A stretch of DNA of 6,749 nt. Origin: a virus. Lineage: Duplodnaviria > Heunggongvirae > Uroviricota > Caudoviricetes. The first letter of the stretch is position 1, and each line of letters opens with the position of its first letter. This document shows, one piece after another, positions 1 through 6,749 of this stretch. Made by a program: the position numbers and the translations under genes. The notes beneath the pieces were generated by a model, which made no database searches, was not told the origin of the DNA, and saw nothing but the letters and a program-made list of their open reading frames with translations. Location of the stretch: IMG/VR virus record IMGVR_UViG_2684622619_000016. The stretch is one strand, 5' to 3'.

Positions 1-62
1 TTAGTCATCCTGTTTACCTCTTTCTCAGGGAGTTTAGTCTCCAGGATTCCCGGGGCGGTTCA
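1..62 (-). mobile_element. Terminal 62 bp of an IS3-family insertion sequence (IS629/IS1203-like left end): terminal inverted repeat, RBS and first codons of an outward-reading transposase orfA; the IS body lies left of the window
   Basis: Seen: 1..62 is the reverse complement of 6690..6749 with one mismatch (position 49 vs 6703). On the minus strand it reads TGAACCGCCCCGGG...GAGAAAGAGG(8 nt)ATGACTAA, i.e. a terminus starting with TG, an AAGAGG Shine-Dalgarno (17..22) and ATG at 8..6 reading out of the window. Recalled, not searched: this matches the IS629-type left end and an OrfA beginning MTK. Confidence 0.75.
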
Positions 63-684
63 ATCTGCTGGCCGGAACTAATGAATTTATTGGTGAAGGT
101 GACGCATACATTCCGCCTCATACAGGTCTGCCAGCAAACAGTACCGATATTGCACCGCCAGATATTCCGGCTGGCTTCGTGGCTGTTTTCAACAGTAATG
201 AGGCATCGTGGCATCTCGTTGAAGATCATCGGGGTAAAACGGTTTATGACGTGGCTTCCGGCGACNNNNNNNNNNNNNNNNNNNNNNNNNNNNNNNNNNN
301 NNNNNNNNNNNNNNNCATCGGGGTAAAACGGTTTATGACGTGGCTTCCGGCGACGCGTTATTTATTTCTGAACTCGGTCCGTTACCGGAAAATGTTACCT
401 GGTTGTCGCCGGATGGAGAGTGTCAGAAGTGGAACGGCACATCCTGGGCGAAAGATGCAGAAGCAGAAAAACTGTTTCGGGTACGGGAGGCAGAAGAAAC
501 AAAAAACAGCCTGATGCAGGTAGCCAGTGAGCATATTGCGCCACTTCAGGATGCCGTAGATTTGGATATTGCGACGGAGGAAGAGGCATCGTTACTGGCT
601 GCATGGAAGACATATCGGGTATTGTTGAATCGTGTTGATACAACAGTAGCAGCGGATGTTGAGTGGCCAGTCGCCCCACAATAA
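63..684 (+). CDS. tfa: Tail fiber assembly protein (Tfa/gpG-like), 5'-truncated at the IS junction and interrupted by a scaffold gap; possibly a pseudogene
   Basis: Frame 2 translation 38..265 ([76 protein letters not shown]) continues after the gap in frame 1 (316..684: ...[48 protein letters not shown]...[16 protein letters not shown], stop TAA 682..684). This is the characteristic phage Tfa sequence. There is an in-frame TAG at 35..37 inside the IS and no ATG between 38 and 178; the first start-like codon is GTG at 179. Confidence 0.85.
227..354. repeat. Identical 39-bp direct duplicate (227..265 and 316..354) flanking a run of 50 N (266..315): scaffold gap with unmerged overlapping contig ends
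   Basis: Seen: CATCGGGGTAAAACGGTTTATGACGTGGCTTCCGGCGAC occurs on both sides of the N run. Removing 266..354 (89 nt) restores one continuous Tfa reading frame. Confidence 0.9.
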
Positions 685-690
685 AAAGAA

Positions 691-720
691 AAAGCCATCG
701 ACAGAAATATCGATGGCTTT
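691..720. terminator. Candidate bidirectional rho-independent terminator between the convergent tfa and acetyltransferase genes
   Basis: Seen: perfect 11-bp stem AAAGCCATCGA (691..701) / TCGATGGCTTT (710..720) with an 8-nt loop. An A-run lies at 683..692, which is a T-run on the minus strand, and TTT follows on the plus strand. It sits 6 nt past the acetyltransferase stop and 7 nt past the tfa stop. Confidence 0.5.
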
Positions 721-727
721 ATGTACT

Positions 728-1204
728 CTATTTATACAATACAACACCACTCTTTTTAGTTATATATGTGCAGTTTGATGGTATATCTTTATTTATAAAA
801 GACATTGCACCTATTTTTACATTATCCCCAATTTTACGTGATAATCCAATGATGCAACAATTAGCTCCGATATCAACGTTACTACCAATTTTTACTCTTG
901 AACTAGGCATATCACCATCTATCTGTCCAATGGTAGTATTCTGTCGTAATACCAGATTTTCACCCGCATCAACAGCAAAATGAACAACAATTCCAGCATG
1001 ATGGGGAATTGTCAACCCTTTTCCAATATTTGCGCCCAATCCTATTTCACAACCAAACTTGTTAATTATTTTACTGTTTAACTTTTTGGCTGCTTTCTTA
1101 TGTAATTTATTACCATTAATATACATTTCGTTAGCCAACCGCCACCAGAAAAGGAAATTCCGGTTACGCTGCTTTTTCTCTCTTAAAAGCCTCCAGATAT
1201 CCAT
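728..1204 (-). CDS. Hexapeptide-repeat acetyltransferase (left-handed beta-helix, serine acetyltransferase CysE/WcaB-like), cargo gene in an AT-rich island
   Basis: The translation contains tandem [LIV]-G-x4 hexapeptide repeats and a CysE/WcaB-like core (GCEIGLGANIGKGLTIPHHAGIVVHFAVDAGENLVLRQNTTIG...VKIGSNVDIGANCCIIGLSRKIGDNVKIGAMSFINKDIPSNCTYI). I chose the ATG at 1204 (MDIWRLL..., about 158 aa, the size of WcaB-like enzymes). The six-frame ORF extends to a GTG at 1333 (201 aa), but that N-terminal extension is low-complexity, AT-rich translation with no Shine-Dalgarno; the start is uncertain. Confidence 0.7.
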   Translation of the reverse strand: MDIWRLLREKKQRNRNFLFWWRLANEMYINGNKLHKKAAKKLNSKIINKFGCEIGLGANIGKGLTIPHHAGIVVHFAVDAGENLVLRQNTTIGQIDGDMPSSRVKIGSNVDIGANCCIIGLSRKIGDNVKIGAMSFINKDIPSNCTYITKKSGVVLYK

Positions 1205-1351
1205 ACGTTTCCGCCGAATTACTTCATGTTTCCAGAAGTTTTTTAAATTAGTAGAGTTTCCAAATAAAACAAAGTGAATTGCCATTAAGTAAGATAGCAC
1301 GATAATCTCCTTAATTATTATTTCAGACCACACATGTTATAAGGTTAAGAG

Positions 1352-1380
1352 ATTATAAAATCCTGTTATTTGTTATTCAA
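1352..1380 (-). promoter_or_regulatory. Candidate sigma70 promoter for the acetyltransferase cargo gene
   Basis: Seen on the minus strand: -35 TTGAAT (1380..1375), 17-nt spacer, perfect -10 TATAAT (1357..1352), in the AT-rich spacer between the gpU stop and the cargo gene. Confidence 0.4.
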
Positions 1381-1456
1381 AAACAATTTTCTGAGAAGGA
1401 CATACAACAGCAAGTCGCCAGTCACCTTCATCAGGAAATTGGCGACATACGTTAAA

Positions 1457-1951
1457 TCAGAGCAGCCCCTTAACTGAGCTGGCCGCGCTATTAAGGGATG
1501 ATGTCACCTTATCTTTGAAGCCGGACAGCATATCGCTGAACGATGAGGATTGCAGGCGCTCCCGCAAATCCTCATCACAGCGTTCAAGAGTCAGTGAAAA
1601 TTCTATCTTTTTCGCCTTACCGTAGCGATCAAACTCGGAGCGGGTCGTATTCGTTCCGGTCAGGACATACATGCCGTAAATCTGCCCGACGCCATCAATC
1701 AAAGGCCAAGGACGTCCTGTATATGCCTGCGTGGTCAACAACGACAGCGACACTTCGCCACCAGTAATCTCAGGATAAAGAACACCAGAAAGAACGATGC
1801 GATCATCACCTGCACCGATATACTGCCAGCTTGCTGAACGGTTAACGCGTTCATTTTTCACATGTCGCCAGCTTTTGTTTTGCTGTAACTGCTGATGCGG
1901 CAACGTGCGCAGCTCAAAAACAAACATGCCGTAGATCATCATCATGGCCAT
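1457..1951 (-). CDS. Phage tail protein gpU-like (P2 family)
   Basis: 164-aa ORF beginning MAMMMIYGMFVFELRTLPHQQLQ..., matching the P2 gpU family as I recall it. ATG at 1951 with a GGAG Shine-Dalgarno 4 nt upstream, 6 nt after the tape measure stop. Confidence 0.9.
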   Translation of the reverse strand: MAMMMIYGMFVFELRTLPHQQLQQNKSWRHVKNERVNRSASWQYIGAGDDRIVLSGVLYPEITGGEVSLSLLTTQAYTGRPWPLIDGVGQIYGMYVLTGTNTTRSEFDRYGKAKKIEFSLTLERCDEDLRERLQSSSFSDMLSGFKDKVTSSLNSAASSVKGLL

Positions 1952-1957
1952 GACTCC

Positions 1958-4797
1958 TCAATCTTTATCGTAAAAACTGCCACGCCTGGCACGGGCGCGC
2001 CGTTCCATTTCTGCCCTGACCATTTCGCCGACCAGTTTCGCCAGTTCGCGGGGATTCTGCGTAACAACGTTATGCAGATGAACATGAATTTCACCGCCAA
2101 ATCCGGAGGCAACAGGCTCCCGGTTACGGGAAGTTGCAGGAACTGATGCCACTGGCGATCGTATGGCCTCCACCACCGGGCGGGAGCTGGCCGCAACAAC
2201 AGGGACCAGCGCCGGAGGCAGCGGAGCCGGGACCACGGGTGTGATATTAATTGCGGGGGCAGGCTTACTGACCTGCGCAATCTTCCGCTCCTGCCACTCC
2301 CCACGAACAGCAAGTGCGCGGGGCAGGTTCTTAAAGACAATATCGCCGGGGCCAATGCGTTTTTTTGTCTCATCAACCAGCTTACCTGTGTTATCAGCAA
2401 TTTTGCTGAGTCTGCGTAGCGTGCCGGTATTGCTGTCTGTGAGAGGTTTGTTGTCTTTGGGTTTATCATCTCCGGTGCCATTGCTATTTCCCGCAGACTT
2501 CGGCGGATTGATTTTCGCAATGTCTCCCTGAAACAGAGCAACCTTGTCCTGAAGAATGGCCGCACGTTGTGCGTCTTCGATTTTCTTGCGCGCCCTTTCC
2601 GCTTCATCCGGAAGCACACCGAGTTTTTCAAGTATCCACGCCAGCGTATCCAGCAACATTTTTGCAGGCGTCAGAACAAGCTGTAACGCACCACCAAGAA
2701 CGTTACCGAATACCTCGCCAGCACTGGTACATTTATCCAGCGTTTCCTTGCTGGACTCCATCGGTGACAGCAGCGATTTAAACCAGTTAAACACCTGGCT
2801 GAACCGCTTCCGATTACGTCAAAAACAGGGCCAAACCGTTCAAAGGTGTCGCGCAACGGGGTCAGCCTTTCCATAATCCCGCTGAACACCCCGGCAAAGA
2901 AAGCCCTGATAGGATCCCAGTATTTCCAGATAAGAACGGCAGCTCCGGCAAGCGCAGCCACGATAAGACCAACCGGACTGAACAACGCCCCGATAACGCC
3001 TCCCAGTAAAGAAACGGAACCCGTCACCATTCCCCATAGCGCAGGTAACACCCTGACGACATTCATTGACCGGGTAAGAATGTCAAAACCAAGACGCAGG
3101 GTGGCCAGCTTCCCGTAAAGCACCCCAATAACCAGCGACAACGAGCCAATCGTTGCAGTCATTGCCAGCAACGCACCGCCTGCTATCAGTAGCTGGCGCG
3201 TCAGTACCGGATGGGCCTGCGCCAGCGAGGTGATTTTTTCAAGCACCCGCGTGAGCCACTGCGTGACAGAACGCAGCGGACCGTCAACCAGATCACTGAT
3301 GCGAATACGAAGACCTTCCCATGCGCTGTCGAGATTTTTCAGGTCCCCATCAAGATTATCAGCCATTACTTTTGCGACGCGATCGGCCTCTCCCCTTGCC
3401 CCCTGCAATTCTCTGGTCAGTTTTTGCAGCTCTCCTGAACCAGCCGCCGCAACAAGCGTCTGCAAACCAACGAACGCCTCTTCTCCGGCGATGTCCTTGA
3501 AGAAGGAGACCTGGTCCACCTGTCCGTATTTTTGTGTCGCCTTATAGAGATCAAGCAGCACATCCTCCATCGGGCGCATTTTGCCTCTGGCGTCAGCAAC
3601 TGACACCCCCAGCTCTTTCAGTGCATCAGCCGCAGCTTTTGGCGGTGATGCAAGGCGGGACAGACTTGCGCGCATGGCCGTGCCAGCATCGCTTCCGCGA
3701 AGACCATTATTGGCAAGCATCCCGGCCATGGCCGCCGCTTCTTCAAGACTGATACCAAGTTTTGCGGCAACCGGACCGGTATACTTCATGGTTTCGCCCA
3801 GCGCGCGTAAATCAGTATTGGTCCGGGTAAATGCTGCTGTCAGCGTATCGCCCACCCGGTCCATTTGATCGGCTGTCAGGTTGAACTGTGTGAGGATATT
3901 GGAGCCTATATCAGCCGTCTCGCCGAGTTCGACGCCACCTGCCAGCGCCATATTAAGAACACCGGGCAATGCGGCCTGAATGGCCTGCGGAGTAAAACCA
4001 GCCATTGCCAGAAAGCTCTGCCCACTGGCGGCATCACTCGCAGTAAACTGTGTTTCAGCAAGTTTTAACGCCTGCTCACGCAGCGCCTTAAACTGCGGGC
4101 TGTTTTTGTCGATTCGCGTCAGTGCCTGAACGCGGGACATCTCTTTGCCGAACCCGATCGCAGGCTGCAAAAAACGCCCGGCAGCATAGCCGCCCGCCGC
4201 TGCCGCACCAATTGCCAGCGCACCACCTGTTTTCAGTTTTCCCGCGGTTTCCTGCGCGTGCGAATACCGCTCACGCGCCTGCGTTACACGCGCAAGCGCC
4301 TGCCGTTCGCGTTCAAGCTGGTTGTTGTATTGTTCGGTGCGTCTGATGGCCTGCTGAATGGTGTTATCGCTGCCTGTCAGGGAAATGCCGTGGCGTTTCA
4401 GCTCTCCGCCAAGTTCCCTCATTTTCTGAATTTCCCGTGTGCGCGATTCATTCAGGCGTTCAAGCCGGGTGCTTAACTGCTGCATCAGCTTTTGTTGTTT
4501 TTCGCTGAGCACTGTACCCGTGCGTTGTAACTGATTAAGGGCGTTAAGCTGGCGTCGTGCTTTCACGATGCCAGCATCCGCTTTACTGACAGCGTCGCGG
4601 GCGCGCTCAAATGATCGCGCCTGACGCTCGAGATTTTTGATCGCCCCCTGCGTTCGCTGGATGGAGTCACCAAACTGCCCCATCAGGCGGCGTGCGTTTT
4701 CGGCAGGTCGGGTCAGCCTGTCAACGGCGCTGAAAGCGACCCGGATATCAAGAGTCTTCATTGTCTGCATTCCCGCTGCGAAGTGCCGCCCGCTCAC
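1958..4797 (-). CDS. Tail tape measure protein (gpT-like) with an apparent frameshift near 2795..2815 that splits it into 708-aa and 278-aa ORFs
   Basis: The large ORF 2671..4797 is Ala/Leu/Gln/Arg-rich with predicted coiled-coil character and a glycine-rich hydrophobic segment, typical of tape measure proteins. ORF 1958..2794 continues in another frame (...FNWFKSLLSPMESSKETLDK...RRGSFYDKD) and ends 6 nt before gpU. The last ~40 codons of the 708-aa frame look like out-of-frame read-through. Start is ambiguous: GTG 4797, ATG 4770 or ATG 4761, all overlapping the E' end. Confidence 0.85.
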
Positions 4798-5277
4798 GCC
4801 AGCTAACCACTTCGCCGGGCGTCATCATGAAGATTTCGGCGGGCGACCAGTTAAAAATAACGGCAATATCTGCCACAAAGTCTTCTATGTGCTCAAAGCA
4901 CACAACCGTGATCAGGCTTCCGTCGCCTGTTCGTTCTTCCCGCCAGAGTCCGCACCGCTCAAAAAATTTACGGCAACCACACATAACTGAATAAAGTCAC
5001 GGGATGCCATTTTTTTGATCGTCACTTCATCCAGTCGCGGTGATGTCACGCGTGACAGCAGCGTAAACATGGATTCCGCTTTCAGATTCAGCACATCAGA
5101 CAGCGACAAATCTCGCAGAGATCCAGCCTGCTCAATAGCCCCGGTGATCTCCACATACGTGATTTTTTCGCCGCCTCGCTCAATTGGTTGGGTAAGTTTT
5201 ACACCACGCTCACTGGTTTCTTTCACAGTGTCAGTAACTACCGTGTTTTCGGTATCGATGTTTTTCGTCTCTTTCAT
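4748..5277 (-). CDS. Tail assembly chaperone gpE-like (4912..5277) and its -1 frameshift extension product E+E' (to the stop at 4748..4750)
   Basis: gpE ORF has ATG at 5277 with an AAGGAG Shine-Dalgarno 8 nt upstream and stop TGA at 4912..4914. The overlapping -1 frame ORF 4748..4984 (…FFERCGLWREERTGDGS…) is entered at the TTTTTTG heptamer. Its end overlaps the tape measure start, as in the P2 FI-FII-E-T-U-D operon. Confidence 0.75.
4960..4966 (-). other. Programmed -1 ribosomal frameshift slippery heptamer T TTT TTG (E to E+E')
   Basis: Seen: minus-strand ...GCC GTA AAT TTT TTG AGC... in the gpE frame. A -1 shift reads TTT TTT GAG CGG..., which is exactly the 4748..4984 ORF. Recalled: the P2 E/E' frameshift uses this heptamer. 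Confidence 0.7.
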
Positions 5278-5331
5278 CAGGAAACTCCTTTCAGTCAGAG
5301 GCGACGCACTGCGCCGCCTGCATATTACTTA

Positions 5332-5844
5332 TCAGCCAAGCCCAAGCGCGGAACGGATGCGATCGGGCACAATGTCCTTGCCGTCCTTCCGGTAAATGAA
5401 GTTCAGCAGGTCAATCTCCCACAACGGGCGATCGTTAACACTCAGCTTGTAGTAGGTGTTTTTAATGGCGTAAGTGTGTGATGTGGCTTCGCCCTGTTTG
5501 GCTTCCCCCATATCAATTTCCGTCACACGTCCGCGCATTTCGACTTCATACAGGTCGCTTTCATCATCGGTGTAGTATTCCCCCGCAAAACGCAGTAGCG
5601 TGCCGTCAATCGTGCCGCCATACTTCAGGAACAGCTCACGAACTGCGCCCCCCATGACAAAGCTCGCATCAAGCGCGGAGTCGTCCAGGCCGAGGTCAAT
5701 ACTTACCGCACCCATCATGCCACCACCCCGGTAGCTGTCGGTTTTGCGCGTCAGTTTAGGCAGGGTGACGGACGTCACCTTACCCACTTCGTTTTCACCA
5801 TCCACAAACAGCGTAAAAAAGCGAAGATGTTTTGGTACAGCCAT
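5332..5844 (-). CDS. Major tail tube protein (FII-like, P2 family)
   Basis: 170-aa ORF (MAVPKHLRFFTLFVDGENEVGKVTSVTLPKLTRKTDSYRGGGMMGAV...) with the P2 FII architecture. ATG at 5844 with a GGGAGG Shine-Dalgarno; the start overlaps the sheath stop as TGATG. Confidence 0.9.
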   Translation of the reverse strand: MAVPKHLRFFTLFVDGENEVGKVTSVTLPKLTRKTDSYRGGGMMGAVSIDLGLDDSALDASFVMGGAVRELFLKYGGTIDGTLLRFAGEYYTDDESDLYEVEMRGRVTEIDMGEAKQGEATSHTYAIKNTYYKLSVNDRPLWEIDLLNFIYRKDGKDIVPDRIRSALGLG

Positions 5845-6689
5845 CAGGCACCTCCCAGCACCGCAAATGCGGGACCAAAGAATTCATCAGTAAACGACTG
5901 GTAAAGCTCCATGTCTTCCAGCGGAGGAACGGGCGTATATTTGTAGCGAATACGCACACGCCCCTGACGTAAATTCGTGGTGCTGTTATCCTCGATGTCA
6001 TACCAGCACTCCGCGCCAATCAGTTTCCCGGCAGTAACCAGTGAATCCAGTTTTGCCCTGATGGCACTGATAACATCCTTCACGTTCGCAGGTGTCAGTG
6101 GACTGTCGATGGTTTCAAACTGCGCTTCCGCAATTGAATCAGCCAGCACCTGTGCGGTTCGGGTATACACCTCAAAGATGTAGGCGTTCGTTTCCGGTGT
6201 GCGGTTGCCCCAGAAGCGGAACCCGTTGCGACGAATAATGGTCGTGATTTCTTTGTTGTTGAGGCTGTTGGCATCACTGTCTTCGGCCTGCAACGACCAG
6301 AACACATGCCTCGACATCCCAAGCACATTTTTAACCGGAACGTTGGACAGCGATTTGTGCCAGCCCTGCTCATGGTCAATGTACGCACGAAGGCCGCACG
6401 CATAAGCAGGCGCGGGGAACGTTTCGTTTTTGCCACTTTTCAGGTTGTAGGCGATGAAGTCAGGCCATAAGAGCATCACCTCACGTTCGTTGAATTTCTG
6501 GCGGTAGGTAATCGCCTCAGCCATCGTGTTACAACCATGTGGCATACACAAACGCGCGCAGTTTACCCGCAATCACGCACAGGGATTTTGTTACCGCCTC
6601 CGTGTCCAGCTCCGGCGCGGCCAGAATACGCGGACGGTATCCGATGCTTTCATCCTGCTCTGCAACAAGCAGCGCATACATCCCCGTAT
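5844..6689 (-). pseudogene. Tail sheath protein (FI-like), 5'-truncated by the IS at 6689/6690 and carrying an apparent frameshift at about 6535..6540
   Basis: The C-terminal part (to the stop at 5844..5846) reads ...AITYRQKFNEREVMLLWPDFIAY...HEQGWHKSLSNV...IIRRNGFRFWGNRT...YKYTPVPPLED, which is sheath-like. The part upstream of the shift is in another frame (6689..6532: NTGMYALLVAEQDESIGYRPRILAAPELDTEAVTKSLCVIAGKLRAFVYATW). Together they correspond to roughly residue 115 onward of a ~390-aa sheath. There is no start codon; the frame runs into the IS end. Confidence 0.85.
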
Positions 6690-6749
6690 TGAACCGCCCC
6701 GGAAATCCTGGAGACTAAACTCCCTGAGAAAGAGGTAAACAGGATGACT
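6690..6749 (+). mobile_element. Terminal 60 bp of a second IS3-family (IS629/IS1203-like) copy, left end, with transposase orfA starting at ATG 6744 and reading out of the window
   Basis: Seen: TGAACCGCCCCGGAAATCCTGGAGACTAAACTCCCTGAGAAAGAGGTAAACAGGATGACT. It is inverted relative to 1..62 and differs at one base (6703), so these are two distinct copies rather than an assembly duplication. Confidence 0.75.

Follow-up and report, generated by a model that had tools for sequence, protein, structure and literature searches.

The window analysed here is a stretch of 6,749 nt, and the features found in it are collected in Table 1. At both edges stands the left end of an element of the IS629 family (IS3 family), the two being inverted relative to each other, and between them lie the decayed tail genes of a cryptic P2-like (P88/Xuanwuvirus-type) prophage, Sp13. 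Once a gap and a duplicated piece described below are removed, the remaining 6,660 nt are 100% identical to positions 2570015-2576674 of CEC13091, a closed E. coli O157:H7 genome (ONT and Illumina). In strain Sakai the same locus is annotated as 'prophage Sp13, P2-like phage'.

Table 1. Coordinates of the features in the window.
Feature	Position	Strand	Remarks
Left IS end (IRL, leader, first orfA codons), IS629 family	1-62	-	remnant in the closed genome
Tail fibre assembly gene (tfa), tfaQ type	63-684	+	Pfam Caudo_TAP; first 46 nt missing; interrupted by the scaffold gap
Scaffolding artefact	266-354	none	50 N (266-315), then exact 39-nt duplicate (316-354) of 227-265
Serine O-acetyltransferase-like (hexapeptide-repeat) cargo gene	728-1300	-	
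gpU-like tail protein	1457-1945	-	Pfam Phage_P2_GpU
Tail tape measure pseudogene	1958-4761	-	1-nt deletion at 2805/2806; stop at codon 697 of 936
Tail chaperone genes	4748-5277	-	gpE 4912-5277; GpE-family/E' 4748-4903
Major tail tube protein (FII)	5332-5844	-	Pfam Phage_tube
Tail sheath gene (FI), 3' two-thirds	5844-6689	-	cut by the IS
TAT, one copy of the 3-bp target-site duplication of the right IS	6687-6689		second copy beyond the IS, outside the window
Left end of the right IS (IRL, leader, ATG ACT of orfA)	6690-6749	+	complete 1,310-bp IS629/IS1203

The tail module is of the Peduoviridae, P88/Xuanwuvirus type. The genes for sheath, tube, gpE/E', tape measure and gpU stand in the P88 order, and Pfam matches were obtained to Phage_sheath_1/1C, Phage_tube, PhageMin_Tail and Phage_P2_GpU. 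Over 5.2 kb, the block U-T-E'-E-FII-FI shares 93.7% identity with Escherichia phage P88 (Peduoviridae, Xuanwuvirus) and is oriented in the same way with respect to tfa and D, and against the P88-group phages the identity is 91-97% with the order kept. P88 is a complete phage that carries an invertible tail-fibre segment and a DNA invertase between tfa and U; in the prophage of the window, on the other hand, the acetyltransferase gene has taken the place of that segment, and the genes for head and baseplate have been lost by deletion. The module is also defective, the sheath and tape measure genes both being pseudogenes. The latter is labelled 'frameshifted' by PGAP in all O157 genomes whose annotation was inspected. 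The sheath gene has a lineage-specific 5-nt deletion at 6535/6536, and the right IS follows nucleotide 337 of its 1,185 nt. At the other end, position 63 corresponds to nucleotide 47 of the tfaQ-type gene, such that 15 codons plus 1 nt are missing. An Rfam scan returned only the IS009 family, inside tfa, which has no bearing on the insertion sequences.

In Sakai, Sp13 (ECs_2617-ECs_2649) is a CP-933T-type P2-like remnant at the leuZ-cysT-glyW tRNA cluster. It shares with the window the locus, the gene order, the frameshifted tape measure and a 1,057-bp IS629/IS1203 remnant abutting a truncated tfa. The two differ in the sheath gene, which in Sakai is intact, with no IS629 on the right side, whereas in the strain of the window it carries both an IS629 and the 5-nt deletion.

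The window appears to be an entire short-read scaffold from an O157:H7 clade 8 isolate, either CEC13091 itself or one nearly identical to it. Drafts of the CEC strains were built with Platanus_B scaffolds (PMC9997748). The sequence stops 60-62 nt into an IS629-family element on both sides, most likely because short reads cannot resolve a multi-copy repeat; the IS629 left end is found at some 18 places in CEC13091. The run of 50 N and the duplicate behind it fall inside tfa, where the closed genome has a single copy of the 39-nt stretch and nothing in between. The gap with its duplicated flanks is an artefact, and the break that it makes in the reading frame of tfa is spurious. Such an artefact, together with ends lying in a multi-copy repeat, might raise the suspicion that the terminal repeats are themselves an assembly chimera and that the arrangement is absent from the cell. 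We give this next to no probability, since the independently closed long-read genome contains both junctions and the IS copies beyond them, in exactly the arrangement of the window.

We now turn our attention to the two ends. A repeat search returned inverted arms at 3-64 and 6688-6749, each of 62 nt, that are 98% complementary (61/62 identical). With the IS termini (TGAACCGCC...) at 62/63 and 6689/6690, the left end comprises 62 nt of IS and the right end 60 nt. The arms differ solely at IS nucleotide 14, where the left copy has G and the right copy A. At each end the orfA ATG reads outward (8 to 6 on the minus strand, 6744 to 6746 on the plus strand), and on the right side the transposase annotated in the closed genome begins at the position of 6744. 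A first-pass annotation, made from the letters of the window, had described two separate inverted IS3-family (IS629-like) copies with their left ends facing inward, with transposase genes starting at the edges and reading outward, and with junctions inside tfa and the sheath gene. All of this is borne out by CEC13091, which has both junctions and, beyond them, the whole extent of each IS copy. The statement that the copies differ at one base holds for the first 60 nt; over the 1,057 bp that the two elements have in common there are 50 mismatches (95.3% identity), and the longest perfect runs are 125, 74 and 68 bp.

The same annotation noted an AT outside each IS end and considered that it may be chance, which is also how it is best read. 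The AT of the right copy is part of its 3-bp target duplication, and the flanks of other IS629 copies vary: at the same position, eight others in the region have CT, GT, GC, CC, TT, AG, TT and AC. A target preference for AT was rejected, the ten flanks having no consensus.

The right copy is a recent and intact element. It is 1,310 bp long (L001 14601-15910) and has both imperfect inverted repeats, TG...CA, whose ends match at 23/25 positions when inverted. Its orfA (108 aa, HTH_Tnp_1) and orfB (296 aa, HTH_21 plus rve, i.e. DDE) are joined by a programmed -1 frameshift, for which PGAP gives 'programmed frameshift' and an AL1L pseudoknot, and the encoded transposase is apparently intact. Length, ends, the two reading frames and the target duplication all place it in IS629/IS1203 of the IS3 family (IS3 group), a family whose transposition is generally of the copy-out-paste-in type. 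It is identical to the IS629 copy that sits in an IS30 of strain 17B6-2. Among 5,426 complete genomes, the contiguous right junction occurs in CEC13091 only, at the same locus.

For this copy, the comparison of target-site duplications proposed by the first-pass annotation gives a clear answer. TAT is present on both sides of the element, and with the element taken out the flanks join up as in the intact sheath gene of strain 17B6-2. The duplications are therefore matching and not swapped, and the right IS is a simple in-situ insertion into the sheath gene. This agrees with what is known of IS629, which makes 3-4-bp duplications and is enriched in prophages (PMC3271280).

The left copy is of a different kind: an old, dead remnant and not a functional element. 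In the closed genome it comprises nt 1-1,057 of the 1,310 bp and is annotated as a frameshifted, incomplete pseudogene, and in Sakai the same 1,057 bp are annotated as 'IS1203 family: IS3 partial' (ECs_2636/2637). The right inverted repeat of this copy is absent from CEC13091, and its orfB ends at ...TGDSYD, before the last catalytic residue, E. It thus has neither both inverted repeats nor a complete DDE transposase. At 95.3% identity it is also of a different subtype from the right IS629/IS1203; the variants described as IS629 subtypes I and III are 4-5% apart (PMC3271280). The junction between this remnant and tfa is found in 264 of the 5,426 complete genomes. The two IS copies are unrelated events.

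While the structure of the left junction is directly observed, its history, probably one insertion and one deletion, is less certain because the other end of the IS and its duplication are gone. An IS629 variant would have inserted into tfa first. A later deletion probably took the last 253 bp of this IS as well as the 5' end of tfa, and the same deletion probably removed the phage head and baseplate genes as far as the parM/parR-like genes.

A segment flanked by two related IS copies in inverted orientation resembles the composite transposons Tn10 and Tn5, and the first-pass annotation had offered a composite-transposon-like unit as one reading, in which the two copies would cooperate to move the 6.6-kb tail segment. 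The inverted IS629-family pair and the apparently intact transposase encoded by the right copy are compatible with this. However, the left copy has lost its right inverted repeat, so that the unit has no left outer end, and the transposase of this copy, its orfB being cut short, is both truncated and frameshifted. As to the right copy, a matching duplication of its own in the sheath gene shows that it inserted alone. In contrast to Tn10 and Tn5, there is no duplication around the whole unit and no sign of movement, the unit with both junctions being present at one locus in 1 of 5,426 complete genomes. The probability that the segment moves in this way is accordingly negligible.

The other reading offered was that the segment is a substrate for inversion or deletion by homologous recombination between the copies. 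Deletion can be dismissed, as inverted copies can only yield inversion. Inversion is theoretically possible with 1,057 bp at 95.3% identity, but no instance of it was found. The present order might, for example, be a derived, flipped state produced by recombination between the two copies, considering that the genes from FI to U are on one strand and tfa and D on the other, unlike in phage P2. The opposite orientation is, however, native to P88 and to a fuller P88-like prophage without IS. The duplications of the right IS match and are not swapped, and strains lacking the right IS have the same order, which is identical in Sakai, 17B6-2 and P88. A flipped present state is on these grounds extremely unlikely. 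An older inversion of the FI-U block, in view of the genes being co-directional with tfa and D in P2, was likewise considered and rejected, as P88 and the fuller prophage, in strain 503025, natively have the opposite orientation.

We have also considered the case where the pair is a live substrate, with RecA-dependent recombination turning the segment over in part of the cells or in certain lineages. Repeats in prophages are known to drive inversions in O157 (PMC7430833). The inverted homology of 1,057 bp with its perfect runs would provide the sites, and 51 complete genomes have an IS629 in this inverted orientation just to the right of the sheath gene. On the other hand, the 4.7% divergence is generally expected to depress recombination, and mismatch repair limits homeologous recombination. 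All genes involved are pseudogenes or belong to a cryptic remnant, and no selectable outcome is apparent. Neither a reversed order nor the swapped duplications of an IS-mediated inversion were observed: among the 264 genomes with the left IS/tfa junction none is inverted, the uninverted order parM-parR-IS'-tfa-acetyltransferase being found in 264 genomes, although these are consensus assemblies in which a minority inverted subpopulation would stay hidden. We regard a live substrate as very unlikely. In the consensus genome, the flanked segment is neither a mobile unit nor inverted.

The stretch of ca 2.2 kb from the sheath gene through the neighbouring IS30 was also compared between strains. 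In nine genomes examined, IS629 occupies nine different positions. Those nine loci agreed in orientation, but they had come from a search that joins same-strand pieces only. When all complete genomes were examined with two orientation-neutral searches, the left end pointed toward the sheath gene in 51 cases and the opposite way in 9, and the idea that IS629 always has the same orientation here was rejected. The idea of exactly one IS629 per genome in the region was rejected as well, Sakai having none. It may be that this stretch is a regional hot spot for IS629 and, separately, that the inverted pair flips in a minority of cells, but we consider this improbable. The best explanation overall, in which we have high confidence, is that the window is a repeat-limited scaffold of the Sp13 remnant with two unrelated IS events, and that the segment between them is neither mobile nor inverted.

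The finding as such is an ordinary one and was known before. What the segment holds is a dead tail module of a prophage, which carries little biological weight, and the polymorphism of IS629 insertions in prophages of O157:H7 has been amply documented and already serves for strain typing. A word of caution follows for the reading of draft genomes, where a contig that ends on both sides in inverted IS stubs normally signals a repeat-limited assembly and not a composite transposon. In addition, the sheath::IS629 junction (6689/6690) could be used, along with the deletion of 5 nt in the sheath gene, as a lineage marker for CEC13091-like strains of clade 8. Finally, if the positions near the sheath gene and the 51:9 skew represent independent events and not shared ancestry, they would point to an undescribed local rule of target selection or orientation for IS629.

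A repeat search of the window finds two inverted arms of 62 nt each, at 3-64 and 6688-6749, that are 98% complementary; a match at 61 of 62 positions between the two termini of a 6.7-kb stretch far exceeds what chance would produce. The IS terminus (TGAACCGCC...) places the left boundary at 62/63 and the right one at 6689/6690, so that the left stub is 62 nt of IS629-family DNA on the minus strand and the right stub 60 nt on the plus strand. An orfA ATG reads outward in each stub, and that of the right stub is the exact start of the annotated transposase in the closed genome described below. The first-pass annotation, which had proposed inverted IS left ends with outward-reading transposase genes and junctions inside phage genes (tfa on the left, the sheath gene on the right), was correct in these respects. 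It had also allowed that the AT found next to both IS ends might be chance, and no consensus is indeed found across ten flanks; the AT beside the right IS belongs to a TAT duplication.

The 6,660 nt left after removal of an N run and a 39-nt duplicate match positions 2570015-2576674 of E. coli O157:H7 CEC13091 (NZ_AP026108.1) at 100% identity. This clade 8 strain is a clinical isolate from Japan whose genome was closed from ONT and Illumina reads, in a study whose draft assemblies are Platanus_B scaffolds (PMC9997748). The locus adjoins the leuZ-cysT-glyW tRNA genes and pgsA-uvrC, and is annotated in Sakai as 'prophage Sp13, P2-like phage', a placement that also rests on PMC7430833. Since CEC13091 contains the IS629 left end about 18 times, we infer that a short-read contig stopping 60 nt into this multi-copy element is expected assembler behaviour. 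Two features had previously been overlooked, namely the 50 N at 266-315 and the exact duplication that flanks them (227-265 = 316-354). Across 227-354 the closed genome has a single copy and no added DNA, and because the joined 6,660 nt match it at 100%, the gap is a scaffolding artefact, with two overlapping contigs left unmerged by the scaffolder, and tfa is really continuous. The artefact falsely breaks the tfa reading frame in the window.

Gene assignments follow Pfam and the PGAP annotation of the closed genome, whose sequence is identical.

Prophage genes in the window, and the IS629-bearing loci compared with it (L numbers denote fetched loci; L001 is CEC13091)
Feature	Coordinates	Strand	Remarks
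tfa, 5'-truncated	63-684	+	begins at nt 47 of tfaQ-type gene
Hexapeptide-repeat acetyltransferase	728-1300	-	PGAP/Pfam
gpU	1457-1945	-	PGAP/Pfam
Tape measure pseudogene	1958-4761	-	stop at codon 697 of 936 after loss of 1 nt at 2805/2806
E' and E	4748-5277	-	PGAP/Pfam
Tail tube	5332-5844	-	PGAP/Pfam
Sheath gene, 3' 846 nt	5844-6689	-	5-nt deletion at 6535/6536
Nine IS629-bearing loci	L001 14300-17900; equivalent region in L002, L004-L006, L009-L012

Compared with its intact counterpart in strain 503025, the tape measure gene carries a 3-nt in-frame deletion at 4058/4059 besides the 1-nt deletion, and PGAP marks it 'frameshifted' in every O157 genome inspected. The sheath deletion removes one CATGA/CATGT unit and shifts the frame; because it is confined to CEC13091 among the 13 loci fetched, the sheath gene has been struck twice in this lineage, by the deletion and by IS629. 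PGAP calls the truncated tfa a complete 176-aa protein (WP_001310336.1) with a CTG start at 65-67, 2 nt past the IS end, a call that arises artificially from the truncation. The Rfam family IS009 (RF02111) matches at full length at 449-647 (+), scoring 191 bits where the gathering cut-off is 117. The match lies wholly within the tfa CDS, and the family may do no more than describe conserved coding DNA of tfa.

In CEC13091 the right IS is complete, with 1,310 bp (L001 14601-15910), both inverted repeats, an orfA with HTH_Tnp_1, an orfB with HTH_21 and rve, and a programmed frameshift annotated by PGAP. A comparison of target duplications had been proposed earlier, and the matching TAT on both flanks indicates a simple in-situ insertion; the rejoined flanks give the sheath gene as it stands, intact, in strain 17B6-2. 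That strain has, within IS30, an IS629 copy that matches the element at every one of its 1,310 bp. The junction of the right IS with the sheath gene is matched contiguously in CEC13091 only, among 5,426 complete genomes.

The alignment of the left IS to the right one is confined to nt 1-1,057; it is ungapped and has 50 mismatches (95.3% identity). The one-base difference claimed for the two copies holds for the window stubs (nucleotide 14, G on the left and A on the right) but not for this full shared length. In the closed-genome copy the right inverted repeat is absent, and orfB stops at ...TGDSYD, ahead of the catalytic glutamate; PGAP treats the element as a frameshifted, incomplete pseudogene, and Sakai labels it 'IS1203 family: IS3 partial' (1,057 bp). 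Its sequence variant, which fits the published IS629 subtypes with 4-5% divergence (PMC3271280), is also found at other sites in O157 chromosomes and on pO157. Full-length elements with G at nucleotide 14 lie right of the sheath gene in strains 4276 (L005 3990-5299) and SS17 (L010 12343-13652), the former 100% identical to the remnant across all 1,057 bp, so the left-type variant exists as complete copies too, pO157 included. The simplest history of the remnant would be an insertion into tfa followed by a single deletion that took the tfa start as well as the head and baseplate genes, from IS nucleotide 1,058 as far as the parM/parR-like genes.

A composite-transposon-like unit, as originally suggested, is excluded: the outer end of one copy is missing, the right IS has its own duplication, and the bracketed unit occurs at one locus in one genome. 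A past inversion of the segment is likewise excluded, since the duplications of the right IS match and the order is the same as in strains without that IS and in phage P88. Homologous recombination between inverted repeats cannot yield a deletion, which disposes of that part of the earlier proposal. A future inversion between the copies is a possibility, given that the longest runs of perfect identity are 125, 74 and 68 bp; however, the IS/tfa junction is present in 264 complete genomes and the uninverted parM-parR-IS'-tfa-acetyltransferase order in an equal number, 264, and no flipped genome was seen.

The FI-to-U block (sheath to gpU) lies on the opposite strand from tfa and D. An old inversion of this block is ruled out, the same layout being native to phage P88 and to the fuller prophage of strain 503025. 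Phages of the P88 (Xuanwuvirus) group share the tail block at 91-97% identity, but have an invertible tail-fibre segment and a DNA invertase (6823-8971 in the P88 locus, L008) where the window has the acetyltransferase gene (within 700-1450). Copies of the latter are found in the unrelated phages JL22 and vB_EcoM-Ro157c2YLVW (about 90-93% identical) and, beside a tfa gene, on an O103:H2 plasmid (94%), which suggests that tfa-acetyltransferase is a mobile cassette.

Nine closed O157 genomes each have IS629 at a different position within about 2.2 kb that comprise the sheath gene, a D' fragment and the adjacent IS30. Perfect 3-bp duplications are present at seven of these loci (TAT, TCT, TCC, GTT, CAG, GTT and AAC) and adjacent deletions at two; Sakai has no IS629 in this sheath-IS30 region. 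The nine loci were picked by a method biased to one orientation, and two orientation-neutral searches were therefore added. Over all complete genomes, the left end faces the sheath gene in 51 and the opposite way in 9, these being counts of genomes rather than of insertion events. The 2.2-kb region may be a regional hot spot for IS629.

The inverted-IS observation is thus correct and the arrangement real; the window shows it through the interrupted ends of what appears to be a short-read scaffold. Annotated reference genomes and the IS629 literature already contain all that is described here, and the two IS copies are unrelated events in a decaying cryptic prophage.
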